DNA of 64,000 nt from Podarcis filfolensis (GCA_964270895.1 OZ185440.1); one strand, 5' to 3'. Counted from the stretch's first letter, positions 14,380 through 32,913 are shown. Notes: a model not told the origin generated them from the letters alone. Translations and numbers: made by a program.

Positions 14380-14515
14380 CAGTATTAGCCAGACTTGGCC
14401 CTCCAGATGTTTTGGGACTACAATTCCCATCATCCCTGGCCACTGGTCCTGTTAGCTAGGGGCGATGGGAGTTGTAGTCCCAAAACATCTGGAGGGCCAA
14501 GTTTGGCCATGCCTG
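14380..14515. mobile_element. Palindromic hAT-type MITE (~135 bp)
   Basis: TTGGCCCTCCAGATGTTTTGGGACTACAA...TTGTAGTCCCAAAACATCTGGAGGGCCAA near-perfect long inverted repeat. Related decayed copies at about 4747-4885, 23465-23593, 42157-42255, 45090-45155 and 56660-56755. Confidence 0.85.
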
Positions 14516-16118
14516 GGTTAGGCCTATCCCAGATTCTGCTGCTGCTAAGTGCAAATAAAACTAAGGTTAGTGAAGGTGAAGGATGAAGAGAAATCAGGTA
14601 TGATGTGGCTAATGCACCTGTAAAGCTAAACAACTAAACCAGCCTTCCCTAACTTTGTGCCCTTGGGAATACCTACTGGTTCCTTCAGACTCACCCCGAT
14701 AATGCATCAGCTAAGGGGCATGGCCAGCCCCAGCAGGGACCTCCTCCTGGCACCAACATTATCATTTGTTTGACACCAGGGTTAAGGGATTCCTCTAGTC
14801 TTAAGTATGTGATGGGACTGGATGGTTTTTAAATACTGGCATCATGCTAATCGATTATTCCTAGTGGTTTCTCATTAGTAATGGTGGGTTCTGATTTTTC
14901 GTGTATTATGGATGTTGCTGTTGTGTTCATTTTTTCCACTTTTAGATAACTGAATTGCTGTAAGAAGCTTGGAGTCCCCCCTTTTTTTTTTAAGATAAAG
15001 GTGTCTAATAAATTTAGTAAACCTAAACCAATGAGTTGGATCCAGACGTAGAACAGACCTAATAAATCAATGGGACTGCTCTAAGTTTGATTAACACTCA
15101 ATTCAACACAGTGTGTATATGATTTAACAAAAATAGCATTGTGAAATAGCATTGGAGACAAAACTACCAGCACTCCATAGTCCAAGGGCCAAGGGGATGA
15201 GAAACACTCAGTAAATACTATCTTCTGGAACACTCCCTGATGACAAGACTAGAAGCGCTGCAGAAAAGTCCCCCTGAGGCCCATCTCCTACAGACAGTCC
15301 AGAAGGGTACCATGGTTGCGATGGTATCAAAAGCTGAGAGTCCGAGGAGAAGGAGATTCACAACTTCTCTGTTCCTTCTGAGACGTCTACAAGTCACAAT
15401 GGCTTAAAGTAAACTCCAGGAGAAACTACACAGGCTTGGCTGTGCTTTTGCAAAAGGACAGAGTCACCTAATTAATAGTTATTGCATCAACTTCAGTCAG
15501 CAGTTGCAGTAACAACACTGATGATATTGATGGCATTGGAGAGCCAGGCTTAGCTCAGAATGAAAATGAGCAGAGCAGTCATCTATCAAATCCATATTGC
15601 TGTAGGCGGTGGGAGGCAGTGGAACCTTTTGTTTTTGTTGTTTTCTTGTTCAGCTAGTTTGTTTTAGTGGTTCAGCTCCAAGTGATTTAGATGTATAAAT
15701 AAATGAGTATATACAATGTCAAATGATATGTGCTTACTGGAGCCCTGTGGCTAACACCAGTTTTTCATGAAAGACCCAGGGTGGTGGTGGTTGTTTGTTG
15801 GTAACCCTCTTTCTTGGTTTACAGTGACAGCTACATGTAGGTGGGTGAGAAGGTAGGTAGTTGGGAGACTTCTCTTTAGGAAACATCTCTCTTTCCTTTT
15901 GCTCGATTCCGGACAGTGGTTGGCTGAAAAACATGCCATCTCTGGCATCTTGAGATAACCCTCCCAATTTATTGCTGCCATCTGCAGTAAGTCTTTGATC
16001 TAACCCATCCTGACAACTATCTCCTCTCTTTTATTTTAACAATCTATTTGACTTATGACAAGGATAAGCTATCATTTTGTTGCAAAATCTGGAACCTCTG
16101 CAGCCGATTTCTTCACCT

Positions 16119-16230
16119 GTATATATACATACAATATATATATATATATATATATATACACAATATACAATATATGTAATACAATATACAATATACAATA
16201 TATGTAATATATATATATATATACAATATA
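16119..16230. repeat. (TA)n / (ATATACA)n compound microsatellite
   Basis: Directly visible. Confidence 0.9.
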
Positions 16231-16905
16231 GTCCATTTCAAGGATCCCACCTTGCCTAGCTTGCGCTTTCTTAGCCACTGTGTGTTACTCCTACATCCAA
16301 TTACAAGAAAGAACGGAAAGAGCTGTGCTATGAAGTCTCAACCGATGTTGCATAAAGTCAGATCGCATTGCTTGCTCTACAGAGCAAAGCTGAATTATGT
16401 AGGTGATTTCAAAGTCATGAGTTATATTTGAGAATGAATATTATATACATGATATTTTGAATTTGTGTGTGTGCTTTCATAGTATTGAGAAATCTGATTG
16501 ACTGAAAGGGATCTTAAAGTGTTTCTATGTAGATTATAAAAAAACCAACAACTTGCTGGCTTTTTGAGAGAAGATAAATGTATAATTGTTTTTATTTGTT
16601 TTAAAATGTTCTGTCCCTTACCTTTGTATTGAATTTTGTGGCCTACAACCATAATAAATCACAATAAATTGCTTGAACTTGCTTAAGTGATGCTATAATC
16701 AACCATTTAGTTGACTAAGGCATCATATTGCCTTTTCACTGCAACGTTTAAATTGCAACACTACGAATCAAGCCAGTGAATTAACTCATATGTTAGCTCT
16801 GAAGAATCTACAGATTAATCAAAGATCATGAAATCACAACAACCCAAAACCTATTGTGAACAATCTATTCTCAAGTCAATACCAATGCCTTGGTAGGGTT
16901 TGAGG

Positions 16906-17029
16906 CAGGGATGGGGAACCTGTGGCCTCCAGATATGGTTGGACTACAACTCCCATCACCCTTGATTACGGGTCATGCTGCCTGGGCCTAATGGGAGCCT
17001 TTTAGAGGGCCAGTAGTTCCCCACCCTTG
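16906..17029. mobile_element. Palindromic hAT-type MITE
   Basis: CAGGGATGGGGAACCTGTGGCC...GGCCAGTAGTTCCCCACCCTTG termini, with the GGACTACAACTCCCATC core. Confidence 0.8.
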
Positions 17030-17088
17030 GGTTTAATTCCTCAAGCCCCACTGTTCCTGTTTTTGAATGTGCCGATATCAATACTTCA

Positions 17089-17400
17089 NNNNNNNNNNNN
17101 NNNNNNNNNNNNNNNNNNNNNNNNNNNNNNNNNNNNNNNNNNNNNNNNNNNNNNNNNNNNNNNNNNNNNNNNNNNNNNNNNNNNNNNNNNNNNNNNNNNN
17201 NNNNNNNNNNNNNNNNNNNNNNNNNNNNNNNNNNNNNNNNNNNNNNNNNNNNNNNNNNNNNNNNNNNNNNNNNNNNNNNNNNNNNNNNNNNNNNNNNNNN
17301 NNNNNNNNNNNNNNNNNNNNNNNNNNNNNNNNNNNNNNNNNNNNNNNNNNNNNNNNNNNNNNNNNNNNNNNNNNNNNNNNNNNNNNNNNNNNNNNNNNNN
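17089..17400. other. Assembly gap (312 N)
   Basis: Run of N, abutting a palindromic MITE on its right side. Confidence 1.
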
Positions 17401-17535
17401 AGGCATGACCAAACTTGGCCATCCAGATGTTTTGGGACTACAACTCCCATCACCCCTAACTAAAAGGACCAGTGGTCAAGGATAATGGGAACTGTAGTCC
17501 CAAAACATCTAGAGGGCCAAGTTTGGCCATGCCTG
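17401..17535. mobile_element. Palindromic hAT-type MITE
   Basis: AGGCATGACCAAACTTGGCC...GGCCAAGTTTGGCCATGCCTG. Same subfamily as 14380-14515. Confidence 0.87.
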
Positions 17536-20350
17536 TCCTATGCAAATCAATAGACGCCCTATTGATGGTGGTGTTCTGGATACCAACAACAACATCCTGT
17601 ATAGAAATGCTGAGTATCTATCAAAACTCTTAAAAACTTTCAACTCAACACAGGGGGACAAAGTAGAGCTGATTTAATGACACCCCAAAGCATGCAAACA
17701 TGGTTTGCTTGGCATGCTTCCAAAGCAAATCCAAAATCATGCTAATTAGATCACTGGGTAGAAAGTATATGTAGAAAGTAGCAACGCATTAAGGGTTGTT
17801 CCCTCACACTTTATATCAGGTTCCCCCAAGAAAAACAGTGTGGCTAGCCATTATTTATTTGCCATATAAATAATGTCCCATGAAACCAGAAGTAACTTTA
17901 CTCGAATATATGGCAGTTTCTGAGCTTGCATCTGGGGGAATCAAAATATAAAGGTGCCTCAGCAATGCTTACTTTCCCACTTGTGATTGACTGAAATGCA
18001 TCCTGCTATTGCCTCAAGGGAGGGTATATCTCTGCTTATCATCTTTTCTGTTTTCACTTTATGTTAATAAGAGCTTAGCATAATGGACCAATAATGAATG
18101 CTATTTAAATGCCCATATATTCCTGAACATCTGTTGATGCATATGCAGAATACAATTTGCACATATGAGTACATGCTGCCAGTTTGTGCACGTATTCCCT
18201 CTCCGTAGGACGTAGAAGTAGGTGTGACACATTTCTGAATCGAATAATAAAAATGTGTCAGCTAAGCTCGTGCTATTTATGTCTCTTGCTCGTAATGCCA
18301 TGTATCTGCCAACCTTTGCAACTGGCTCTTTCTAATAGTTCTCAATGAAATAGCCAAATCTTGAATTTGCAAGGCATGCAAATTCCTATAGATTTCTTCT
18401 AGTGTTTTGTTCTGCTTTATAGAAGTCTTTGCCTGCTTCTGTAGTTCCCAGTATAGTTATGCAGGCATGGTCACAACTACTGCTACTTCTAGGCAAAATG
18501 TTGGTTAACCTAACGCTTGTGACATTTAACAAACTCTTTTGTGTTCCAGTTACCTAAATATGGATGGGCTAAATCCTGTACTAGATTGAGTTTTCACACG
18601 TTGTGATTTTTAGGTGTACAATTAGGAGTTTAAGCACATAGCAGGGTGGGAAACCTGAGCCTCAAGGGACAAGTGTAGCTCCCTATTTGGGCCTTGGCAC
18701 TCTCCCATTGACCACCCTGCTTTTGTTTGGCTGAAATGTGTCCTTGAATTGTGTTAATGCCTCTTGTCTGTCTGATAAGAATATGGTGGTTGTAGGGAAA
18801 GCTATGTGTACACAGCAAACATGTGTAGAAACCTCCAGTTTTTGTGTAGCTAAAATGTAACATTGCTTCACCCACTCTTATCCCTTCCTATGTTATCCCC
18901 AAAAGAATTCCTATTTCCATTTTCATCAGAGAAATGTGGGAAGGTATGGAATAGGATGTCCCTATTTTCATCTGAGAAAGGTTGGAGTGTATGCTTTAAG
19001 GCCTAGCTCACTTGCAGTTTCACAGAGAGGAAGCGCATACAAGTCTCCAGTCTCTGGCATTATTTTGTTTTCTGACAATGTCCATATTTCCTTGCTAATC
19101 GTTTTAAAAATGCTTCTGTCTGTTTACTTTGTGTGTGGACAGCCACATCAATTTTATTTTTCGAGATCTTCTGGAAAACGCCCAAAGTTCCAGCTTGCAG
19201 TTTTGATCACGAGGCCATGTCATCAAAGCATTATGTGCAAGACTGAATAAGTGGTCATTCTTCAGAGCACCCTTCAGATACTGAAAGCCAGCAGCAGAGA
19301 ACAGCAGAAAACAAAGAGTATGCTGGAAGGAACAACTGAGTCACATGCTTGTTACAACCATATCAGCGTTAACAGGGAATGGCAGCTTCAATCCCCACCC
19401 ACACAGCCTTGCTCTACTGTCAAACACACAAGCACATAACGATTAGCAAGAGGGCAAAACTGATCTTTCAAGATATTTATGCACCCTGTCAAGGAAATGC
19501 CGGCTGGAACCACACTGACAATGACAACAGCTTTGCCAGTTCTGAACAACAGAAAATCCACTGTGGGATTTAAACAAAAGAAAGCCATATTTTGTCCTGA
19601 CAAGCAATGTGAAGTCATCTGTCATTTCCCGCACACACATTTTGGACTGGTGCTGGGAAGGTTCAAACTCTGGTGTACTCAATAAATTTTTTATTTTTGG
19701 CAGCATTTCTGTTTAATCTTTACAGAGATTTTACAAGAGGAGGTTGGAAAAAGTTGGCCTTGTAGAGATAAGTGCCTGTGACCTTAAACAATATCTTACA
19801 TTTCACTTCAAAAGCACATAGCTCTAAAACTGTCCTCTTATTTTAATGAAATTATTTCATGTTATCTGCTACTCACTAAATAACTGTGTCTCCATGCATA
19901 CTGGACCACATGACCTATCTTAATGAGCCTTGGCTGAACAACAAATTTATTTTTACCCAATTGGCCTGCTTTAATTAGATCAGGCCACCATGGTTTTAAG
20001 GGAATATCAGCAGTTCCACCAGGAACACCTTTATTTCTAAGAATTTATAGCTATGAAAGCAATGTGATGAAATCATCTTCAGCAATGGGTGCCCAGTGTC
20101 TATGTTGATGTTGTTTTGCAATCTGCTTGCCGAGATTATTTTGGAAACTTTTGAGTTTTCCTGCAACCTTTTTCTAAAGTGTCATGCTATTAGCATATGC
20201 TGTGAGTTAATTGCTTCTGGTGCTTCAAGGCAGATCAGCTTCGCAAAACAATTAAAAACTAATAAATGGAAACTGCTGACAATCTCAAACTATAAGATGA
20301 ACTGACTTACACACTCTGACTGTCCACTGCTCCTATAAGTTTGCCCAGAG

Positions 20351-20489
20351 CAGGTTTGGGGAACCTTTGGCTCCCCAGATGTTGCTGAACTCCAACTCCT
20401 CTCACCTTAGACCATTGGGTATGTTTGTTAGGGCTGATGGGAGCTGTAGTTCAGCAACACCTGAAGGGGCAAAGGTTCCCCTTGCCCCT
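20351..20489. mobile_element. Palindromic hAT-type MITE
   Basis: GGGGAACCTTTGG...AAAGGTTCCCC inverted termini and a TGTTGCTGAAC/GTTCAGCAACA inner palindrome. Confidence 0.8.
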
Positions 20490-20660
20490 AACCTGGAGCA
20501 TGGTGATGGATGGGGAGAGGAAGATGAGCAGAGGGCTTTTCTAGCTGTAAGTAGCAGGATATACCAGGAGTCTCAGTTGTGGAAGGGCCAGTGGCTACTT
20601 CTGATCTTTTAGTTTGCTCCATCATATACATGGCAACGATTTACAAATGGTATTTCAGAT

Positions 20661-20828
20661 CTGTTCTTAACCTGAAGCACCACTTTAGCTAATGGGGCCT
20701 CCTGCTGCCGCCGCACCGCCGGAGCATGATTTCTGTTCTTATCCTGAAGCAAAGTTCTTAACCTGATGCACTATTTCTGGGTTAGCAGAGTCTGTAACCT
20801 GAAGCATATTTAACCCGAGGTACCACTG
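20661..20828 (-). mobile_element. pogo/Tigger-like MITE, partial
   Basis: Ends in CGAGGTACCACTG+TA. The interior is the reverse complement of the 49417-49647 copy. Confidence 0.8.
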
Positions 20829-20945
20829 TAATCCATTCCAGACTTTTAAAAACAACCCCTAAAACAGCAATTTAATATGAAATTTACTGTCTAACGAGAC
20901 CATTGATCCATAAAATGAAAGGAATAAACAATGTACTGCAGTCAC

Positions 20946-20976
<31 letters not shown>

Positions 20977-23900
20977 CAAACTGATCTGGAGATGTTGAGA
21001 ACTGACCTTCAGACTGGAAAAATGAGAAACTGAAAGAAATGAAAATGGACAGATCTGAAATTCCAAACGTTCCTATCAAATGAACTATGAAACAACCAGT
21101 TCATAACATTTCAGTCACAAGGCTGCTAAGGAATATTTGACTCTACCATGACTGAATTTATAATAAATGAGAGGATTACTTTTATGAAAAATATGTATAT
21201 ATGTCCTTTTTATGGTGATGTGGCTGAGCAGGTAGATTATTTATACTCTGTGACATATACATGCTGAAAGCAGCCCTACATTAGTTTAATAAACCCATGC
21301 TGATCTGATAATAATGCAGCAAGCACACAAGGGTGGATAATTAGAGCAAACCTTGCATTTTAAGTCATTACTTGAACAACAGACTGATTGATTAGGATCC
21401 AATTCTGACTATGTCAATACTAGTTTAAAATATGGATGGCAGAATGAAAGAACAACAGAGTGGTCTATTTCCCAGCGTTATGAAATTATCTCCCAATGTG
21501 TAAATGGCCATGTAATAAAACTGCATTTGAATGAAAACTATCATAGGTTGGGTGGCAGAAAACTTACTGAAAACACTTTCACACACACATGCTGATGGTA
21601 GCGGTGCTGGTGGTAAGAGGGGGTATCTGTTGAAACAACCCACTGGGCCTCGTAAGTGCCAATCTCCAGGTTTCCCTCACCTTCCAAGAAGGACGTTAAA
21701 AGGATTCAGGCATTTGCCATCAAAAGAGGAACCTAAAAGCCCTCGTGTACATCCACAGGTGTTGATTTGATCTGGGCTAAATACTTCACCACTTTTCTAA
21801 TTCATCCTATTTTGAAAGCATTTATTGATCCCATTCTTTTTCTTTCCCCTCTCGCGAATGGGATGCGCAACTGAGGAAAGTTATGTATAGTATTTGGCTT
21901 TCCGTTTCATTAATTTGTATTTACAGGGTTTTTAAAATGTTCATTAACTTAAAATAATTTGTAGCTGTAAAAGTATACAACCCCTACTCTTTCCAGTAAT
22001 TACAATCGATCATAAACAATATCAGAGCATGGTTTAAGAAAGCTGTGGCCCTATTTTCTTTCACTCATTGGTGGAAAAGCCATGCTTGGGGATGTAGAGG
22101 CATTTTTTTATATATATAAAAAATGTCTTGATTGTATATTGTGATCATTATCGTTTTCCTAATGTGATTGGTAAAGCATCGATTTCAGGAATAGAAAACA
22201 GATGCCAGCAGAATTTTATTGCCATACAGATGGAAGCGACATAGTGACATCTCACATTCTAAACAGAGTCTACCAGCAATATCTATCCAGAACACTGTCC
22301 CACTCCACCTACTGATTAAGAAAGATACTGCACTGTAGGACTTATTAATGCTGCAATGGATGCTAGCTTGTTAATGGCCCAGGAGATTGCATGCAAATAG
22401 ACCAGAATGGCTGCTGGATATTTCCTCATTGGGAGCTAATTGTTAGCAGATATCCAGAGTCCTCTCAAGTGTAATTCATTAGTCTTTGGGAAGGTGCACC
22501 CCCATCCCTGCTTCCATTTAGGAAAGGGGCTAATTAATACTCCTCTCTCGGTTGTGGAGATCAACAGAAGCAGTTTCAAAATAGTAGGCATGCACAGAAT
22601 TAATTGAAGGCTGAAGCATCTTTAGGAGCTGGGTGCCTCTCTCTGGGAATCTCATGTCAGGTAACGGATCTTGTGAGTGCTGCTTTCCTCCACCTATGCT
22701 ACAGCCTACTCACCCTTTGGAAATCAATATTTCAGAAACACCATCAGCTTTGCAGTTGTTTATGTTCCTATTTAATGTGCTTAGTCCACATGACGTTACC
22801 CTCAAACAACACCAGTCTAAATGCTTTCCCCCTGTAAATTCCAGTTTACCTGGCACAGAGACAATCCAATATGTTGGGGGATTCTGGGCTCCAAATCACA
22901 TCACTTGGAAGTAATAGACAATTTGTTCTTGCTACTCCACTTTCCATGGCTCCCTACTGCCTCAATGGTTTAATTTCTTTTGAAGCCTTGTTTGTACCTA
23001 TTTCCACTGAACAAAGTGTGGCCTTAGACATATTATATTTTTTAACACCTCAGATTTCCACAAAACCAGAAAACTGCATAAATGACCCACATTTTTGTTT
23101 TGTTTTGTTTTACAACCAAACAGTGTAGAAAATAAATAAATCAAAAATTGTGGATTGTGAAATCTGCAATTGTCTGACTGTGCTTTCCCGCAATTCCTGG
23201 ATGGGGATCCCCCCCACCCCCAAATATGGTGTGCACTCAGCTATGTGCATGGCAGCACATGCCCTGTTGGTTCTTAGTCAATGCAACAGAACCAGCCAAC
23301 TAGAAGGCATGGGCAACCACTAAAGGGAATGCCTGCTGGAAAGATTAAAATTGTTCCTCAAATACATGTAGATGTGGACTACTCTGGTCTAATCCGAATT
23401 GGAGGGGGGAGTGAGTTAACAGCTAAATAATGTTGAAATCCCCAAGTCTCTTGTGCTCCAAAAGAGAGCCAAAGCTTGTGGCCTTCCAGATGTCGTTGAA
23501 CTACAATTTCCATCATCCCTGACCATAGATCATGCTACCTGGGGCCCAGTTGTGGTTGGAGTCCAATAACTTGTCATAGGTTCGCCAGTCCTGTCTTATA
23601 CAGAAGAAACAAAAACTAAGAGGACATGCTCTGGGATGCACAGAAGGCAGAAGTTGGGTCTGCCTTTCTGTTTTTGTAATCTCACCAACGGAAAGTCAAG
23701 CCACTAAAGAAGATGCCTGCTTCCATTTGCATAGCCCTGCCTATAATTTTTTTTTCTTGGCTATGCTAGTGTGTGGTGGAATTTTAGAAAGCAGCTTATC
23801 CAATTGACAAGTGCGGACTGGTGACAAAATGTTGCAGTCCCTACTGTTGCAGCCAGCCTGCAACAAGGAGCTCTATAGCACTGCTTGAGTTCAACATAGG

Positions 23901-24002
23901 AGGCTTGGTTTCTTACTTTCTGAAGTATGAGAAGAACCTGGTGAAGAGAAAAGGCAGCTGCAATAAAGATTCCACGTCCAATTTGGCTTCTTTGTAATCC
24001 GA

Positions 24003-24041
24003 AATTGGGATCAATAATTGGGATCAATAATTGGGATCAAT
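24003..24041. repeat. Three perfect tandem copies of AATTGGGATCAAT
   Basis: Directly visible, period 13. Confidence 0.95.
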
Positions 24042-24287
24042 AAATGAACTGTAAAGTACAGTAATGGGAACTCTGGATCACAGTTGAGGCCATCAACTTG
24101 CCTACAATGAAAATGAAGCCTACAGTACGTAGCATTTTTAGCCTACACATAAGAAATGTAACCTTTGCCTGTTAATGTGCTTTGTATTTTAACATGTGCA
24201 AGCTAAAGGCTCTAAATAAAGGTATTAGTATTGGCATTTGTTTAATAATTAATGGTGGTATAGAAAGTTAACTAGGGAATTTCAGGT

Positions 24288-24425
24288 CAGGGATGGGGAA
24301 TCACTGGCTCTCCAGATCTTGCTGGACTACAATTCCCATCACCTGTAACAACCGGTCACGTGGGCTGGGGATGATTGGCATTGGGAGTCCAACAGATTCT
24401 GGAGAACCAGAGATTCCGGGTCCTG
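24288..24425. mobile_element. Palindromic hAT-type MITE, decayed
   Basis: CAGGGATGGGGAATCACTGG start and GGACTACAATTCCCATC core. Confidence 0.7.
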
Positions 24426-24779: not shown

Positions 24780-24831
24780 GAGGCCAGATATTGAACTTGG
24801 GACCTTCTACATGCAAAACATGTTCCCCACC
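24780..24831 (-). mobile_element. Old tRNA-derived SINE head interrupted by the provirus (continues at about 30643-30665)
   Basis: TTGAACTTGGGACCTTCTACATGCAAAACATG is the reverse complement of the B-box/anticodon region of the SINE family seen at 32914. Confidence 0.55.
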
Positions 24832-25489
24832 TGTAGAGATGTTCTCTTTATGTGCCAGTATAGTAAAACACTGGTTCTTTTCTGTGGCATTCTGGGAAAC
24901 TTTTCCTAGCTACTTCTGAACCTTAAAATCTTTCTCTGCTTCTCTCTCTCATACACACTGTGTAAAGATGTGCTAGGTACACACAAATTCCATTCTTTGC
25001 ATTCCACTCTTTTTTCACTCAGGTCACATTAAGTTTACAATGATCTGTTTTCCTTCAGTGTATAATTAATTAGTTGTTCTGTTTTCCTTCAGTGTATAAT
25101 TAATTATTTGTTTTTATATTCTTATCATAACATTAGTAATTGATTTAGACATAATATAACCAATCATAAATCTAGGTGGATTAAAAGCTTAGATACTTGT
25201 CTAAGGTCCATTAGCAAAAGACCCTTTGAAGAATTGGAGATTAATGGATTTTGGGTAACCCCTCCTTATACCTATGTTAACCAATAAGGAACTAGCCTCT
25301 TTGTTTGTATTTTAACCAATCAGCCACTAACATATGAGTGGCCATGCTTTTGTAAGATTCAATAAAAAGAGAGACACAGATGAGTTTCAGGCACGCACGC
25401 ACTCTCTCTCAAGAGGCAGCCTTGGAGCTCAGCTGGGGATCTCAAAAACACCATCCACTTGTTTGCCTTGATTCGAACGCAACTCAACA
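24832..25489 (+). repeat. 5' LTR (658 bp)
   Basis: TGTAGAGATG...AACTCAACA. CCAAT boxes near 25160, 25281 and 25316; AATAAAAA at 25361. Contains a 34-bp tandem duplication (25044-25111). Confidence 0.97.
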
Positions 25490-25491
25490 TC

Positions 25492-25509
25492 TGGTGACCC
25501 CGACGTGAT
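25492..25509 (+). promoter_or_regulatory. Primer-binding site, tRNA-Trp
   Basis: TGGTGACCCCGACGTGAT is the 18-nt complement of the vertebrate tRNA-Trp 3' end and the same PBS as avian sarcoma-leukosis viruses. It lies 2 nt after the LTR CA. Confidence 0.92.
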
Positions 25510-25603
25510 TTCGACGAAGTAAGGTACCAGGTCCCTTGCAGAGCTAGGAAAACCTCATACTTAATCCGACTGGAAAAAAGTCTCAGCGCGCTATTTCATA
25601 AGT

Positions 25604-27148
25604 ATGGGAGGGAATCTGACAAAAGGTCAAAAAGCTCACGCAAATGAATTATTTAAATTAGTCAAGCAAAAGGGGGATGGTGTTCAAATTTCCTTAAAAG
25701 AAATTGAACAAATGTTAATGGAAATAACGTTCCAATGTCCATTTTACGCAGACAAAGGGTCTCTGGACATAGAGACCTGGCAAAAAATTGGAAAAACGCT
25801 TTTTTCTGAGCCAAGGGCTCCGATCGATTGCTTGCTTACTTGGCAAAAATGTGCAAATGCTATTGGTAAATTAGGATTGTCGTCTTCCTTACTTTCTACA
25901 TCCCTTGCTTCCGCACCTGATCCTCCCCCGTACCCACAAATCTTGCCTCCTTTGACTTCACCCCCCTCCTTTCCCTCTCAGCTCGAAGCAGCTCCGTGTC
26001 AGATTAATACAATCCCCCTCTCTCCCCCTTCTCTGCCTGCCACTCCTCTGCCGGTGCCTGCGAGCTCTGCAGAAGCTGCATCTCAGCCTGCTGTTCTTTC
26101 CTCTCTCCCCCCTTTGCATTCTGTTGTTCCAAATGTTTCTGGGGTTGTCCGTGCAGGAATTTCTGAAGCCAGGCAGGAAGGTCTTTTATCTTTAGAAGAG
26201 CAGTCTGCATGGTCTGGGGAAATGCCGTCACTTTTCCCTTTCACTTATCAGCCTATCCCAGGGACAGCACAGCAACAGGTATTTCATGATAAGCTTCCAT
26301 ATTCCATAATGAAGGAATTCAGGAAGGCTATCTCTGACTCAGGTCTTAAATCTTCATATGTTAATGGAATGTTGGAATGTATTTCAACTTCTTATGTCAT
26401 GTGTCCTAATGATTGGAAAGATCTTATGCATATGATTTTATCCCCTGCACAATATGTGGTCTTTGAAAGTGAATTTAAACATAGTGCGATAGCTCTGGCT
26501 GATCCAATGCATACAGCAAGTCAAATTTTTGGATCTGCCCCATTCGATAGCTTGGCTGCACAAGCATTATTGTCAGCTTCGCATTTCAGCCGCACTGCGA
26601 CCTGTGTCCAGCGCGCCATTCGTAAAGTCCCTGTCTCAGGGCAGCCTCTGAACTCCTTTGTAAATGTTAAGCAGCAACACTCAGAGCCTTACCATCAATT
26701 TATTGATAGATTAAAAGAATCAATCTCTAGACAGATAGATAATGAAACAGCTCAGAATGAGTTGATGAAAAAATTAGCCTTTGAGAATGCTAATACTGAT
26801 TCTAAGAAGGTGTTACAATCTGTCATAAGTCGTTCAAAATATAGTCTTGCAGATATGATACAATCATGTACAGAAATAGGGAGTCAATCTCATGCTATGT
26901 CTTTACTTGCCACTGCAATCCAAACTAATAGCAGGCCAACAGGTAATTGTTTCAATTGCAAGCGCCCTGGGCATTTTGCTAAGCAGTGCAGGGCGCCTGG
27001 CGGAGGTGCGAATAAAAATACTACTGCAAATACTACTACCAGACCTTCAAAAAAATGTCCAAAGTGTGGAAAAGGGTATCATTGGGCAAATCAATGTAGG
27101 TCTCAGGGAAACTCCTTAGGGGCCCAACTCTCAGGCCCGGAAAATTAG
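25604..27148 (+). CDS. gag: Retroviral Gag polyprotein (514 aa, intact)
   Basis: Myristoylation signal MGGNLTK and betaretrovirus-type MA (FQCPFYADKGSLDIETWQKIGK). PPPY late domain, MHR (QHSEPYHQFIDRL), and two CCHC knuckles (CFNCKRPGHFAKQC, CPKCGKGYHWANQC). Confidence 0.97.
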   Translation: MGGNLTKGQKAHANELFKLVKQKGDGVQISLKEIEQMLMEITFQCPFYADKGSLDIETWQKIGKTLFSEPRAPIDCLLTWQKCANAIGKLGLSSSLLSTSLASAPDPPPYPQILPPLTSPPSFPSQLEAAPCQINTIPLSPPSLPATPLPVPASSAEAASQPAVLSSLPPLHSVVPNVSGVVRAGISEARQEGLLSLEEQSAWSGEMPSLFPFTYQPIPGTAQQQVFHDKLPYSIMKEFRKAISDSGLKSSYVNGMLECISTSYVMCPNDWKDLMHMILSPAQYVVFESEFKHSAIALADPMHTASQIFGSAPFDSLAAQALLSASHFSRTATCVQRAIRKVPVSGQPLNSFVNVKQQHSEPYHQFIDRLKESISRQIDNETAQNELMKKLAFENANTDSKKVLQSVISRSKYSLADMIQSCTEIGSQSHAMSLLATAIQTNSRPTGNCFNCKRPGHFAKQCRAPGGGANKNTTANTTTRPSKKCPKCGKGYHWANQCRSQGNSLGAQLSGPEN

Positions 27149-27154
27149 AGAGTT
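27106..27154 (+). promoter_or_regulatory. gag-pro -1 ribosomal frameshift signal (G GGA AAC plus H-type pseudoknot)
   Basis: Heptamer at 27106-27112 in the correct gag phase, then a 7-nt spacer. Stem 1 GGGCC/GGCCC (27120-24/27134-38), stem 2 AACTCTC/GAGAGTT (27126-32/27148-54). Confidence 0.9.
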
Positions 27155-27882
27155 CCCCACCCTTAGTTTCTGCTGTTGCAAAAGTTTCTAAAATTGTGCC
27201 TTTTGAATTTGCTATTGATTTGATCAATCAAGAGGCCAAAGACACTGCCTTACCTGGTGAAATTGTGATCATGCCTAGCCAAATGGCAGGTCCACTCCCT
27301 TCTACAGTCACAGGTTTAATTTTGCCTAAATTTTCTGCGGCAAAACAAGGAATCCAGGTTATTCCAGGTGTTTTACATCATGATTATGTGGGCACCATTA
27401 TGATACAATTTTGGAGCCATATGCCAATGCAGTTAACTAAGGGTGAGTCTTGGGCACAATTGGTAATGCTTCCTTCTCCACCTAATGTCGTATCAGCTAT
27501 TGATAATAATTTGTGCGAGCTCTCTTCTTCTATTTCCTCACAGCTTTTGGCTGTGACACAGAGAATTGGACGACAAAAACTTCTTCGTAAGTATAAAATC
27601 AATGGAAAAATTATAGAAGGTTTGATTGACACAGGTGCTGACGTTTCTGTCATTTCCAGTAATTGTTGGGACTCCACATGGCCCTTAGAATCTGCTCCTA
27701 CAGTGTGGGGTGTGGGTGGTAACCAGACTTCTTGTAAAAGCGCACAGTGGCTACCTGTCTCTCTGCCAGACAGCTCTGAAATTATTGCATATATTCAGCC
27801 CTGTGTGCTAAACATCCACCTCAATTTGTGGGGAAGAGATTTACTGCAACAATTAAATGCTACTATTCAATTAAATGAGTAA
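27106..27882 (+). CDS. pro: Pro ORF: degenerate dUTPase domain plus aspartic protease
   Basis: The -1 frame is open from the slip site to TAA at 27880-82. dUTPase-like segment GLILPKFS...GVLHHDYVG...GESWAQL. Protease motifs GLIDTGADVSVI, GVGG and NLWGRDLL. No G-patch. Confidence 0.93.
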   Translation, partial: GKLLRGPTLRPGKLESSPPLVSAVAKVSKIVPFEFAIDLINQEAKDTALPGEIVIMPSQMAGPLPSTVTGLILPKFSAAKQGIQVIPGVLHHDYVGTIMIQFWSHMPMQLTKGESWAQLVMLPSPPNVVSAIDNNLCELSSSISSQLLAVTQRIGRQKLLRKYKINGKIIEGLIDTGADVSVISSNCWDSTWPLESAPTVWGVGGNQTSCKSAQWLPVSLPDSSEIIAYIQPCVLNIHLNLWGRDLLQQLNATIQLNE

Positions 27883-29494
27883 GCATGCTCTTCCCCTCAG
27901 CTGGAAATCTACTAACCCTGTATGGATAGAGCAATGGCCTCTTACTGGGGAACGATTAATTGCCTTAAAACAATTGGTCAATCAGCAATTACTGGCTGAC
28001 CATATTGAACCTTCAGTTAGTCCTTATAATACTCCAGTTTTTGTTATTAAAAAGAAATCAGGAAAATGGAGATTATTGCATGATTTAAGGCACATAAATA
28101 AAATCCTTGAACCCATGGGGCCTTTGCAATGTGGTCTTCCCAATCCAAATGTGATTCCACATTCTTATCAATTGGCTATAATAGATTTGCAAGATTGTTT
28201 CTTCTCTATCCCCCTAGAGGAGAAAGATCGTAGATATTTTGCTTTTACTGTACCAGTAATTAATAATTGTCAACCAACTGAGAGATATCAGTGGAAAGTT
28301 CTCCCTCAAGGAATGTTAAACTCCCCTACCATGTGTCAATATTATGTTAATCAAGCCCTTAAGCCTTTCCGTCTTCAGTATCCACACCTGCTGATTTACC
28401 ATTACACGGATGACGTTCTGATTTGTGCTCCGTGCCTCCCCCCTCATTGGAAACAGGATTTAACAACCTGTTTGTCATTGTATGGTTTAAAAATTGCTCC
28501 AGAGAAAGTCCAGGAAACTTCTCCCTTTCAATATTTGGGACACAAAATGATGGCTAGCTACTCTATTCCTATAATCCCTGAACTACATGTTCCTAAAACA
28601 ATGAAATATGTTCAGTTGCAACAATTGCTGGGTAATATTAACTGGATAAGGCCTTATTTTAAAATCCCTCTTGAAGTTTTGCGACCGCTTTTTTCAGCCT
28701 TAAAAGGCCATCAATTTCCTGGTGAGCAAATCACCTTGACACCTGCTCAACAGAAAACAGTTGCCCATCTGAAGGAACTCATGAAAATTCACTGGGTTGA
28801 TCGAGCAATTCCTAATGTTTTGCCCGATGTAGTCATAATGACAGATGCTATCCAACCTTTTGCAGCCATTATCCAGATAGGACCATCTAAAGTTCACATA
28901 ATTGAATGGATGTATTTACATCATACACCAAGGAACACAGTAACTCCCTTGGTGGATCTCCTTGCTCAGCTTATCTGCAAAGGGCGCCGTCGTTGCAAAG
29001 CGCTTTTTGGCACTGATTGTAATCAAATTATTCTGCCTATGCCTTTAGAGCAATGGGAAACTGCTCTCTCCAACAGCATGGATTTGCAGTGTGCATTGGC
29101 TAACTTTGTAGGTCAAATAGATTACCATGTCCCTGCAGACACTCGCTTGCAGATGAGCAAACAATTTTCCCTGTCATTCTTTTCTATTCTGTCTCCTACC
29201 CCTTTGGATGCCCTGACTGTCTTCACTGACGGATCTCCCACTAGGGGAGTCGTTGCTTGGCAACAGAACAACGAATGGAAAAGTTTGTACACTTTGCCTC
29301 AAAAATCTGCTCAGCGTGCTGAGTTAGCAGCTGCTGTAAAAGCGCTGCATCATTTTTCTTCACAACCTATTAACTTAATAGTTGATAGTTTGTATGTATC
29401 AAATGTCATAACCCGCATACAGGGCAGTTATGTAAGTCCTTTATTGGATGACAACTTGTTGAGTCTTTTCCTGTCCTTGCAATTGCTTCTTTAA
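27875..29494 (+). CDS. pol: Pol, RT and most of RNase H (539 aa); integrase absent
   Basis: PVWIEQWPL, PYNTPVFVIKKKSGKWRLLHDLR, IDLQDCFFSIPL, LPQGMLNSP, YTDD, then RNase H motifs FTDGS / SAQRAEL / VDSLY. Terminates at the deletion junction. Confidence 0.95.
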   Translation: MSKHALPLSWKSTNPVWIEQWPLTGERLIALKQLVNQQLLADHIEPSVSPYNTPVFVIKKKSGKWRLLHDLRHINKILEPMGPLQCGLPNPNVIPHSYQLAIIDLQDCFFSIPLEEKDRRYFAFTVPVINNCQPTERYQWKVLPQGMLNSPTMCQYYVNQALKPFRLQYPHLLIYHYTDDVLICAPCLPPHWKQDLTTCLSLYGLKIAPEKVQETSPFQYLGHKMMASYSIPIIPELHVPKTMKYVQLQQLLGNINWIRPYFKIPLEVLRPLFSALKGHQFPGEQITLTPAQQKTVAHLKELMKIHWVDRAIPNVLPDVVIMTDAIQPFAAIIQIGPSKVHIIEWMYLHHTPRNTVTPLVDLLAQLICKGRRRCKALFGTDCNQIILPMPLEQWETALSNSMDLQCALANFVGQIDYHVPADTRLQMSKQFSLSFFSILSPTPLDALTVFTDGSPTRGVVAWQQNNEWKSLYTLPQKSAQRAELAAAVKALHHFSSQPINLIVDSLYVSNVITRIQGSYVSPLLDDNLLSLFLSLQLLL

Positions 29495-29810
29495 CATCAC
29501 TGACAATTCCAAAGCCGTTCAACGTCAAATTTCTCATTTGCAAAATCTTACCCATCATATTAAACAGGACATTGGGTTCTCTGGTTTCTGGGATTCTATT
29601 TTTCAGTGGTTCACTGGCTGGTTGCCTAATTTAACTTGGCTTCGTAGTCTTTTTTATTATGCCATAATAATTGTATGTATATTAATTTTGTTCTTTTGCT
29701 TCCTCCAATGCATTCCTAGCCTTACAAATCTTTTTTCTCGCCTTTTCTCTCCACCTCAGCCACCTAGTGCTCTCCTCGCTGACTATTATTCGAAATGGCA
29801 ACGCCAATAA
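29481..29810 (+). pseudogene. env: env remnant: C-terminal half of the TM subunit
   Basis: The frame reads NCFFNITDNSKAVQRQISHLQNLTHHIKQD...LFYYAIIIVCILILFFCFLQCIP...KWQRQ*. This covers the end of the Cys loop, HR2, the membrane anchor and a short tail. It resembles ASLV TM (CCFNLSDHS...LLVVCLPCLLQ). Confidence 0.85.
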
Positions 29811-29993
29811 TAAACAAAAAGGGGAAATGTGGGTAGAATTATTTTGGGATTTACTGGCAAACCAATAATCCTGAAAGTACTCATGCCCCATCCACCCTCG
29901 CAGTATTATTTTGGGATTCGATGGCAAACCACTGATCCCAAAGCACTGCTGCTTTATTTTGCTTCATTCAACAAGTTGCCTTATTTCGCAAAT

Positions 29994-30010
29994 AAGAAAA
30001 AAAAGGAGGA
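29994..30010 (+). promoter_or_regulatory. Polypurine tract
   Basis: AAGAAAAAAAAGGAGGA followed by GA|TGT. GATGT is the exact inverse of ACATC at the U5/PBS junction. Confidence 0.9.
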
Positions 30011-30012
30011 GA

Positions 30013-30636
30013 TGTAGAGATGTTCTCTTTATGTGCCAGTATAGTAAAACACTGGTTCTTTTCTGTGGCATTCTGGGAAACTTTTCCTAGCTACTTCTGA
30101 ACCTTAAAATCTTTCTCTGCTTCTCTCTCTCATACACACTGTGTAAAGATGTGCTAGGTACACACAAATTCCATTCTTTGCATTCCACTCTTTTTTCACT
30201 CAGGTCACATTAAGTTTACAATGATCTGTTTTCCTTCAGTGTATAATTAATTATTTGTTTTTATATTCTTATCATAACATTAGTAATTGATTTAGACATA
30301 ATATAACCAATCATAAATCTAGGTGGATTAAAAGCTTAGATACTTGTCTAAGGTCCATTAGCAAAAGACCCTTTGAAGAATTGGAGATTAATGGATTTTG
30401 GGTAACCCCTCCTTATACCTATGTTAACCAATAAGGAACTAGCCTCTTTGTTTGTATTTTAACCAATCAGCCACTAACATATGAGTGGCCATGCTTTTGT
30501 AAGATTCAATAAAAAGAGAGACACAGATGAGTTTCAGGCACGCACGCACTCTCTCTCAAGAGGCAGCCTTGGAGCTCAGCTGGGGATCTCAAAAACACCA
30601 TCCACTTGTTTGCCTTGATTCGAACGCAACTCAACA
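30013..30636 (+). repeat. 3' LTR (624 bp)
   Basis: By manual comparison, identical to the 5' LTR except for one missing 34-bp repeat unit. Confidence 0.97.
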
Positions 30637-32913
30637 CCCACCTCTGATCCCCAGACCTTCCCATGTGACCCCTATATGATCATATTTTTCATTCAAATTA
30701 TTAAACTTCTACATTAATGTTAACAACCAATGCACTAATCCAGTTAATGCTCCATTCCAATAGTCCACAATGGTGCTGGGATACATTTTCCAAAGGACAC
30801 CTTGATACTAGACATAAGAGTAGCTATGAAGAAACACAATGAAATTCCTGCCACAACAACAACAACATTGAACTGTCTGTTCTTCGTTTACACAGTGGCA
30901 AACAGCATATTACTTGTAAATGAAACATGAAGTAATAAAAGGAGTTAATACTCAACTAACTGAACAATCACCTACTAAGAGTAGAGTGTTGGTAGTAACC
31001 CGATTCATTGTTCGTAGGAAGACAAGATAACACTTATGGTTTTTCAGGGAACTAAGTAAATATGATTGTTTTAAGTGCTCTTATAGCGTTCCCAAAACCT
31101 AAAATGACCCAGCCTTGAAAAAGATGTTACAGCTCTTTCTTTTAAAATTTGTGATGACATTTTATTAGCTTGATTCAGGGGGTGGGGGTGGAGTAGAAGC
31201 TCACTGATGGCTTTACAATACAATAGCTAAACAAAATGGCTTTCAGCAAACCACTTGTTATAAGTGCCTTATTTAAAATGTTGTGTGCAAAAATTAATTA
31301 GTTACCTTACCATGGGGTTTCGAAATTGCTTGGTAGACCTTGAACAAAGATAACAAATAAATGGCAATCATATTGGGAGCATTGCTTGGATCTAGTTTTT
31401 GTTTAAAGGATTACCAATGTGAAAGCTGAACTAAATGCCACCTATATAGTTTGTCTCATTTGGTAGGTTTTTACTAACAATTCTGTAAGGTGGAAACATA
31501 GCAAATGTCTAAATAAGAGGCTGGCAGTGAAGACCCTCCTAGCCCCCATTAGGATAAAATCTGTTCTTAATAATGTTAAGCATGGATTTTTATGTCTAGG
31601 AAAAGGACAGAAAAACAAGCTAATAAGCTATTTTATACTCTTATGGGCTCAATTCCCCCTTCCATTAAAATCCTTGTAGGAATTGAAAATACAAAGACTT
31701 CCATATGCATAATTATGCTGTTAGCATATTAAGCATGATACTTATTAATGCAAGTGCTGTGATTGTTCTCTCCATCCTCTTTTCAATTTAACCTGAAACA
31801 AAAATGTTCTGGAGAATTCTGGTGTAAGATGTAGTCACACAGGATTCATGCTGGTATTTGTGCCTGCCAATTCCACCACCCCTGCTTTTTTGGGGTTGGA
31901 TTCAAAACAGAAAAGGGATACCCCTTGCAAGACTAGAATAGAATAGACTAGAATGGATAAAAGATCTTGCAGCCTCCTTGGTACATCTCCAAGGAGCATT
32001 GCTGCAAGTTCACAAGCGCCTAGCATGGCATTACTACCTGCACAGCAAAATCATGTGCTGTCTAGACTAACAGCAGCATACAGCACTGATTCTGAGATGG
32101 TGACAGACACACAACCCAAAGCAAATGGGAAGATACCCTTGAGGCCTCTTTTGGGATGCCCACTTCTTCCACGCCTTCCAGTTTCTTCAACTTCCAGATA
32201 CTGTATCCCACCCAGCTGAATTGATTTGGAGGAATCACTACAAGGAGATGTTTGGGCATTGGAGGTGCTTCTGACCCTTCTTGCCCAAAACATTTGCCAT
32301 TACTGGCATCACATTTTTTAAAAAAATATGGTGCACAAATGGGAGGTGGAATGGAGAGAGTCTTAAGGTTTACCTAAAACTGACATGCCCAGCGATCAAA
32401 TTCATGTGCAGGCAAAGAACGAGCACAGGATCTAAGCATGCAATAAGGCCAGACCAGGGAGCACATAACTACCAGCTCCTGAATGGATTTTCAGTGACCT
32501 AAGATAATTGTTGGGACATCCCCATCTTAAGCTTCCCCATGGCTACTAAAAATCCTGATGGAAATCAGAAGCCCAGGCCAGGGAACTAGTGCCATCAGCT
32601 CCTTGAATTGGCCTGATGATATTTGCAGCATTTGCTTACTCTAATACTTTAAAACTGTAAATCACCTTGGGTGCTGTGGCAGAAAGATAGTTGCATAGAA
32701 TGCAATAAGCAAAAAGCATAGTGACTGGATGTGGATTGTTTCAGCTATGTGGTGTAACCTAGGAGTCTAGAAAAAGGGAATATATTTGAAAGAATGCAAC
32801 AGTAATTTCTATCAATAATGTTTCATAGTTACAGTCTGCTACTATGTCTTTCTCCAACTGTTTGTAACCTTCTTCTACCACTCTCCTGGCCCATATGAGA
32901 GAGTTACCTTTGA

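Follow-up and report, generated by a model that had tools for sequence, protein, structure and literature searches.

Orthoretroviral Pol is described as being made solely in fusion with Gag, an arrangement that both packages the viral enzymes and sets their dose (PMC3196705, PMC5009743, PMC12789967), and the working free Pol proteins reported in the accounts at hand are those of engineered HIV-1 (human immunodeficiency virus type 1) and murine leukaemia virus (MLV) (PMC7019881, PMC3196705). Betaretroviruses enter pol by a second -1 frameshift. The python endogenous retrovirus (ERV) is listed as -1,-1, and the alpharetroviruses (avian sarcoma-leukosis virus, ASLV; Rous sarcoma virus, RSV) as 0,-1, so that gag and pro share a frame and pol is reached by a -1 shift (PMC3482500). 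Foamy viruses (spumaretroviruses) make Pol from its own AUG, by way of a spliced mRNA (PMC3196705), and this Pol is described as including the protease (PMC12789967). The subject of this report is a young class II ERV at positions 24832-30636 of a 64,000-nt stretch of DNA from the lizard Podarcis filfolensis (GCA_964270895.1 OZ185440.1; the window denotes that whole stretch, and positions are counted from its first letter), whose pol frame begins with an ATG of its own that overlaps the stop codon of pro.

The element has the gag / dUTPase-pro / pol / env order of betaretroviruses and beta-like class II ERVs (the mouse mammary tumour virus, Mason-Pfizer monkey virus/simian retrovirus and Jaagsiekte sheep retrovirus types; the python ERV) and shares with them two zinc knuckles, a -1 gag/pro site and a reverse transcriptase (RT) that is most like class II. 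Pol, in contrast, is +1 with its own ATG rather than behind a second -1 shift and, because the -1/-1 pattern fails, the element, class II and beta-like though it is, is not filed as a betaretrovirus. Mammalian betaretroviruses combine a tRNA-Lys primer-binding site (PBS) with a G-patch; here the PBS is that of tRNA-Trp and nothing in pro matches a G-patch domain. ASLV uses tRNA-Trp, and the RT N-terminus is similar to that of alpharetroviruses, but their 0,-1 pattern differs from the -1,+1 found here. The likeness to foamy viruses consists in a Pol that has an AUG of its own, occupies a separate frame and is probably free of Gag, and in a candidate donor/acceptor pair (here read from sequence alone); the differences are that the protease stays on Gag-Pro, that Pol comprises only RT, RNase H and integrase (IN), with protease encoded in pro, and that the element is class II.

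In the window copy pro occupies frame 0 and pol frame 1, which is also the gag frame, and a scan of 27000-27950 for X XXY YYZ found no heptamer after 27328; frame reading and scan bear out an earlier, preliminary description of the locus as having a +1 pol without a slippery site. (All features of the provirus lie on the + strand.) The pol frame is closed by TAA at 27872-74, the pol ATG follows at 27875-77 and the pro stop TAA is at 27880-82, the last two forming an 8-nt ATG-AG-TAA overlap (27875-27882) that is the conserved feature of the junction. The Met falls at the start of mature RT (in the alignment with HIV-1 RT, residue 17 of the query stands opposite residue 20). The preliminary description holds on all points that could be checked: besides the foregoing, CAATTAAATG is duplicated (27850 and 27868, with no further occurrence in the window), and a leader donor GAA/GTAAGG, a CAG at 27769 and a 22-nt GT..AG segment at 27879-27900, of the right length to bring pro and pol into one frame on removal, all exist. 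Not everything that it singled out is conserved. The TAA before the ATG, the duplicated CAATTAAATG and the 5-codon mini-ORF (open reading frame) that runs from it (27857-27874) are present in the window and limited to family 1, the family of the window copy, whereas the non-canonical junction as such is shared by family 1 and by distant lineages.

A DNA search of the same genome gave 66 candidates, of which 40 were scored and 30 loci fetched, and all 30 have a +1 pol with its ATG five bases before the pro stop and no heptamer. When all loci from this genome are pooled, 62 distinct junction contexts result. The overlap stands at the normal end of pro in 43 of them (14 in family 1, 25 in family 2, 3 in family 3 and 1 in family 4), a canonical A AAT TTA -1 heptamer is found in 12, which belong to sister families, and 7 were dropped (an overlap-mimicking deletion, L068; one stop-less context; a spurious anchor; three pro-to-env deletions; a premature pro stop). 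Families 1 and 2, about 80% alike in DNA, have the junction ATGAGTAA, and families 3 and 4 have ATGTCTGA; the RT of family 3 is ~59% alike. The ATG is preceded by either A or G, the middle of the overlap reads AG, TG or TC, and the stop is TAA or TGA; what is invariant across the four lineages is the ATG and the 8-nt spacing. The alignment over family copies, which the preliminary description had proposed, thus gives a constant overlap and not a copy-specific lesion. The refuting case that it had named, full-length relatives with a -1 site, did not materialise; the full-length family-1 and family-2 copies (20 long stretches were fetched) have gag, pro, pol and env open, long terminal repeats (LTRs) that are 99.7-100% alike, and the same junction. 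Pol, open over 880 codons in both families, is under purifying selection, as judged from one family-1 and one family-2 copy (nonsynonymous divergence, dN, 0.081; synonymous divergence, dS, 0.964; dN/dS 0.084).

Scans of viral and metagenome controls yielded solely -1-type or uninformative junctions. Pro/pol is -1 in 8 of the 9 viral control records examined and, among 65 metagenome loci, 50 in 12 junction types read -1, one reads +1, one is spurious and 13 have no anchor. The two +1 controls (L081, viral; L183, metagenome) are taken for lesions of single records, given that the elements closely related to them are -1.

Beyond this genome the junction can be followed in the ends of proteins. 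An ATG overlapped in this way forces a protease to end in N, D, H or Y followed by V, A, D, E or G, and nine further proteases from public protein sets, comprising all seven that are next-closest to the window protein and two later ones, end in N, D or H followed by E or D. Of 204 anchored proteases, 47 have a tail of 17-18 residues, and 13 of these show the forced ending, as against 2 of the remaining 157 (family-2 type accounts for four of the 13 and the rows are related, which makes this no test of independent events). Matching Pol starts are present in 4 of the 12 closest Pol proteins (P0001, MTR; P0002, MSD; P0003, MSK; P0007, MSD), and one Pro/Pol pair, whose pairing is circumstantial, reads LDE-stop and MSK as in the window. 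Relatives from turtle, tortoise and the snake side have proteases that end in INI, HIP or NIP and Pol models that begin with Met at the RT start (P0152-P0157 with P0008/P0010; P0171 with P0005; P0245 with P0006; P0409); these endings and starts suggest a second stop/start geometry.

RT trees place the elements in one reptile-side clade (support 100/100), with family 3 next to -1 families and a turtle element and apart from families 1 and 2. Approximately unbiased (AU) tests reject a single overlap-type clade (p=0.005) as well as a single -1 clade (p=0.001), with the provisos that the groups were named after the tree had been seen, that three rows were under half filled, and that LG+G4 served as the model, with family 4 omitted because of its shortness. 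A tree of the protease over 100 columns nests the -1 families among overlap-type endings, with support of just 80-90. Because both single clades are rejected and the protease tree nests the -1 families, the state of the junction has changed more than once, in one direction or the other.

Since the overlap is conserved in intact, recently inserted copies and across four lineages, its ATG is invariant and pol is under purifying selection, Pol probably starts at its own AUG and is made as a free RT-IN protein. The best single account of how ribosomes would reach this AUG is termination-reinitiation at the ATG-nn-stop overlap, which would replace the pro/pol -1 site and to which we assign a probability of about 0.4. 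Of the ribosomes on the unspliced RNA, a minority would make a -1 shift into pro at 27106 (the site is there to be read, the shift is supposed); these would terminate at 27880-82, and a fraction of them would step back five bases to restart at the AUG at 27875. Two low-yield steps in series should hold Pol to a few percent of Gag or less, comparable with the double frameshift of betaretroviruses, and the free Pol would have to enter particles independently of Gag fusion.

The described systems that come closest in working are those that rely on a termination upstream ribosomal binding site (TURBS), such as calicivirus VP2 and influenza B BM2, with which the junction shares an AUGnn-stop overlap after a long ORF. 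AUGnnUGA is given as the common calicivirus reinitiation overlap and AUGucUGA as the site of rabbit haemorrhagic disease virus (RHDV) (PMC3542737); the junction of families 3 and 4, AUGUCUGA, is that of RHDV letter for letter. In TURBS-type sites the stop and the AUG are within about 20 nt of each other and out of frame, as is the 8-nt overlap in the 43 contexts. The context of the pol ATG is weak in all four lineages (a pyrimidine at -3, no G at +4), and Kozak context is reported to be dispensable for TURBS reinitiation (PMC10275272). A stretch able to pair with helix 26 of 18S rRNA (taken from the host's own gene), TGTGGGGA at 27827-27834, is placed 46-48 nt before the pol ATG, within the 40-90 nt TURBS zone. 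Non-LTR element SART1 (ORF2) and victoriviruses (Pol) are described as likewise having a polymerase ORF after a structural ORF and making small amounts of its product by reinitiation; neither is a retrovirus, and SART1 relies on a downstream RNA structure.

Of the preliminary description's proposal of termination-reinitiation, then, the geometry stands, while specific signs of a TURBS do not emerge, and a number of observations weigh against this route. The exact UGGGA core occurs in no lineage (UGGGGA, UGGGGC, UGGGGU or UGGGCU take its place), and because of this the junction is not filed as a TURBS element, calicivirus-like though its working would be. Pairing of the window's TGTGGGGA with helix 26 is worth -9.8 kcal/mol, to be compared with -9.7, -9.3 and -10.7 kcal/mol in three -1 controls and with merely -5.4 to -6.8 kcal/mol in families 3 and 4; it does not discriminate, because the W-G codons of the protease force it, in the -1 controls included. 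Unlike TURBS systems, the locus has no sign of a selected upstream stretch: synonymous conservation upstream is not in excess (9 of 27 codons differ, background 0.415, P=0.26, in one pairwise comparison of low power), and a shared upstream fold was sought and none is evident. A further difference is that ribosomes would enter the upstream ORF through a frameshift. The evidence from outside the genome consists of protein ends and not of DNA, and 8 of the 12 closest Pol N-termini tested misfit the 8-nt form. Finally, a strong acceptor at 27543 and the paucity of upstream AUGs point to splicing.

Splicing is the close rival of reinitiation, and possible, if somewhat less so: the leader donor would be joined to the acceptor at 27543 in the foamy virus manner, for which those viruses set the precedent (PMC3196705, as there described), and ribosomes, by scanning through one to three short ORFs on the way or by reinitiating beyond them, would make free RT-IN from the AUG at 27875. 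(The two routes are compatible.) The candidate acceptor, a polypyrimidine tract with CAG where the protease domain begins (27520-27543), has 19 of 20 pyrimidines in all 16 family-1 contexts and ties for best of the 192 YAG sites in a full-length copy; in a full-length family-2 copy it has 18 of 20 and is the best of 188. CTAAT is present as a branch point in some copies. Family 3 has a site 4-8 nt off that alone among 103 reaches 16 of 20 (one copy was ranked), and a near-homologous acceptor is present in 2 of 3 family-3 copies; most -1 controls have 6-14 of 20 there. Leader donors are present in families 1-3, and public Podarcis gene models, themselves predictions, also use the acceptor at 27543. 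The 330 nt before pol contain 1-4 ATGs in six overlap-type elements, 4-5 in three reptile -1 elements and 4-10 in eleven other -1 controls, and windows equally poor in ATGs make up just 6.7% of the family-1 element and 2.4% of the family-2 element. Against this, in the window three AUGs come after the acceptor and ahead of that of pol. They open MEKL, an ORF of 4 codons (27602-27616) that is kept in families 1 and 2, a 14-codon ORF (27678-27722) confined to family 1, and the mini-ORF that ends directly at the pol AUG; the weak context of that AUG also counts against this route. The acceptor score is a crude pyrimidine count for a site found post hoc, a 16-of-20 site is present near 27543 in one reptile -1 family too and absent in 1 of 3 family-3 copies, and Ser/Pro-rich linkers are also found in some -1-type proteases. 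A test of the protein linker in overlap-type versus slippery-end proteases gave P=0.003 and is accorded no weight, since kinship and the loss of the purine-rich GFGS motif both confound it. A donor-like AGG/GTGAGT (27440-27448), 101 nt before the acceptor and kept in families 1 and 2, offers an alternative partner. No spliced reverse-transcribed copy was seen: 16 of 16 family-1 leaders continue unspliced into gag, and the deletions in nine copies have mostly short repeats at their ends, none of them lying on GT..AG ends. Three further family-2 copies have pro joined to env. The preliminary description's spliced pol mRNA stays alive by way of 27543, while the acceptor that it named, at 27769, has its CAG in 13 of 13 family-1 and 0 of 26 family-2 contexts.

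The remaining accounts have less to recommend them. That the overlap programmes a frameshift of +1 (or -2), with Gag-Pro-Pol fusion retained, is unlikely; the credit that it receives is due mainly to the fact that the fusion would be kept and no new packaging route required, orthoretroviruses being described with Pol solely as a fusion (PMC3196705). Upstream of the ATG, families 2 and 3 keep the pol frame open, but in families 1 and 4 a stop closes it directly before the ATG, and because of these stops the shift would be confined to the last two pro codons. Those codons vary by lineage (AAT or GAT, then GAG, GTC or GTG) and, by inspection and by tRNA rules, offer no cognate re-pairing; the invariance of the ATG would also go unexplained, since a frameshift would not read the AUG. 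Internal initiation at the AUG at 27875 on the unspliced RNA (internal ribosome entry or shunting, dependent neither on termination in pro nor on splicing) would explain both the conserved ATG and the scarcity of AUGs before it. It leaves the fixed position of the stop without a reason, no conserved upstream structure or synonymous constraint was found, and this account is improbable. Least probable of all, and by our estimate very much so, is that Pol is not expressed and the junction is an inherited lesion whose copies were spread by a -1 helper. Canonical -1 families do reside in the same genome (the 12 A AAT TTA contexts) and pol has been lost from many family-1 and family-2 copies; set against this are the 880 open codons of both families at a dS of 0.96 and a dN/dS of 0.084, and the same overlap in lineages ~59% alike in RT. 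Excision of the 22-nt segment 27879-27900 as an intron, also raised in the preliminary description, was rejected: its ends are not conserved beyond family 1 (AG end in 13 of 13 family-1 and 0 of 26 family-2 contexts), and families 3 and 4 are without the GTAAG donor.

Returning to free Pol as such, we rather favour the view, taken whole, that a reptile class II (ortho)retrovirus lineage, whose young full-length members are found in lizards and which has relatives among turtles and snakes, makes free RT-IN from its own AUG by the protease stop, has switched between this and a -1 frameshift more than once, and packages Pol without Gag fusion. The last element of this view draws its feasibility from the engineered HIV-1 and MLV and would follow from a free Pol. 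If it is true, the lineage is a natural exception to the rule that foamy viruses alone express Pol apart from Gag, the Gag-Pol fusion is dispensable in a natural, recently active orthoretrovirus, and entry of RT-IN into particles without Gag becomes testable, with natural side-by-side pairs of -1 and AUG-overlap junctions in one genome. A survey of beta-like ERVs found 27% of pro/pol boundaries to be '+1' and, as there presented, treated these as imprecision from post-integration indels (PMC1224870); such boundaries may not always be lesions. A description of the junction was sought in titles and abstract starts of the literature and none was found; Repbase, Dfam, most subscription journals, Huder 2002 (python ERV) and Henzy 2014 (TgERV-F) lay outside that scope, so that an earlier mention is possible.

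The provirus itself is flanked by a 6-bp target-site duplication, CCCACC (24826-24831, repeated at 30637-30642). Its 5' LTR (24832-25489) differs from the 3' LTR (30013-30636) by 2 mismatches in 662 aligned nt and one 34-nt tandem duplication. Among named relatives of the element, gene models from Podarcis lilfordi come closest, with 84-86% identity. The PBS (25492-25509) is complementary to the 3' end of the host tRNA-Trp(CCA); a tRNA was sought at eight loci with the PBS pattern and none is there. The candidate leader donor (25516-25524, intron start 25519) is confined to family 1, and family 2 has TTC/GTGAGT instead, directly before the gag ATG. Gag (25604-27148) consists of a p10-like matrix protein, capsid protein and two zinc knuckles (zf-CCHC at 447-462, zf-CCHC_5 at 480-512), and the canonical gag/pro slippery site G GGA AAC (27106-27112), in the gag frame, is present in family 2 too. 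The separate pro frame (27100-27882, ending in IQLNE-stop) encodes a dUTPase-like domain (PF00692, E 4.5e-10) N-terminal to the aspartyl protease (PF00077), within 27106-27879. Between these two domains there is a possible 101-nt intron (27443-27543); its near-consensus donor is present in 35 of 37 family-1 and family-2 contexts, at 88-101 nt, and excision would lead out of the pro frame. Two contig sets compared with 25495-29480 have joints 26826>26935 and 27094>28028, but neither 25518>27770 nor 27878>27901 and no joint that ends at 27544; contigs cannot show splicing, and the comparison counts neither for nor against it.

Pol (27875-29494) is shortened in the window copy to RT and part of RNase H by an internal deletion of ~2 kb with its breakpoint at 29484-29492, which has removed the last part of RNase H together with integrase and the greater part of env, leaving a 3' remnant of env that encodes the end of the transmembrane subunit (TM; 29463-29810). 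The RT motif (28401-28415) is YTDD in the five family-1 loci read and YMDD in three family-2 loci. In full-length family-1 and family-2 copies the env frame starts inside integrase with a TWGQIKSL leader, which presumably resembles Rec/Rem-type signal peptides, and the TM motif is CX6CC, so that a beta-like leader is combined with an alpha/gamma-type TM. Upstream of the provirus a short repeat, probably a squamate short interspersed element, occurs six times at dispersed positions within 14396-24383, and its copies are 67-72% alike to the reference copy.

Among the other loci, L111-L114 represent a spreading, pol-less derivative of family 2, in which a 37-nt piece of RT lies between the end of pro and the env leader and the LTRs are 98-100% alike. 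Older copies of families 2, 3 and 4 and of the -1 families are mostly on one contig (C19 of G000), a clustering that would be expected of an ERV-rich sex chromosome. L066 and L067 belong to a canonical -1 family and have an in-frame ATG two bases past the pro stop (TAG TG ATG), possibly an intermediate between the -1 and overlap types.

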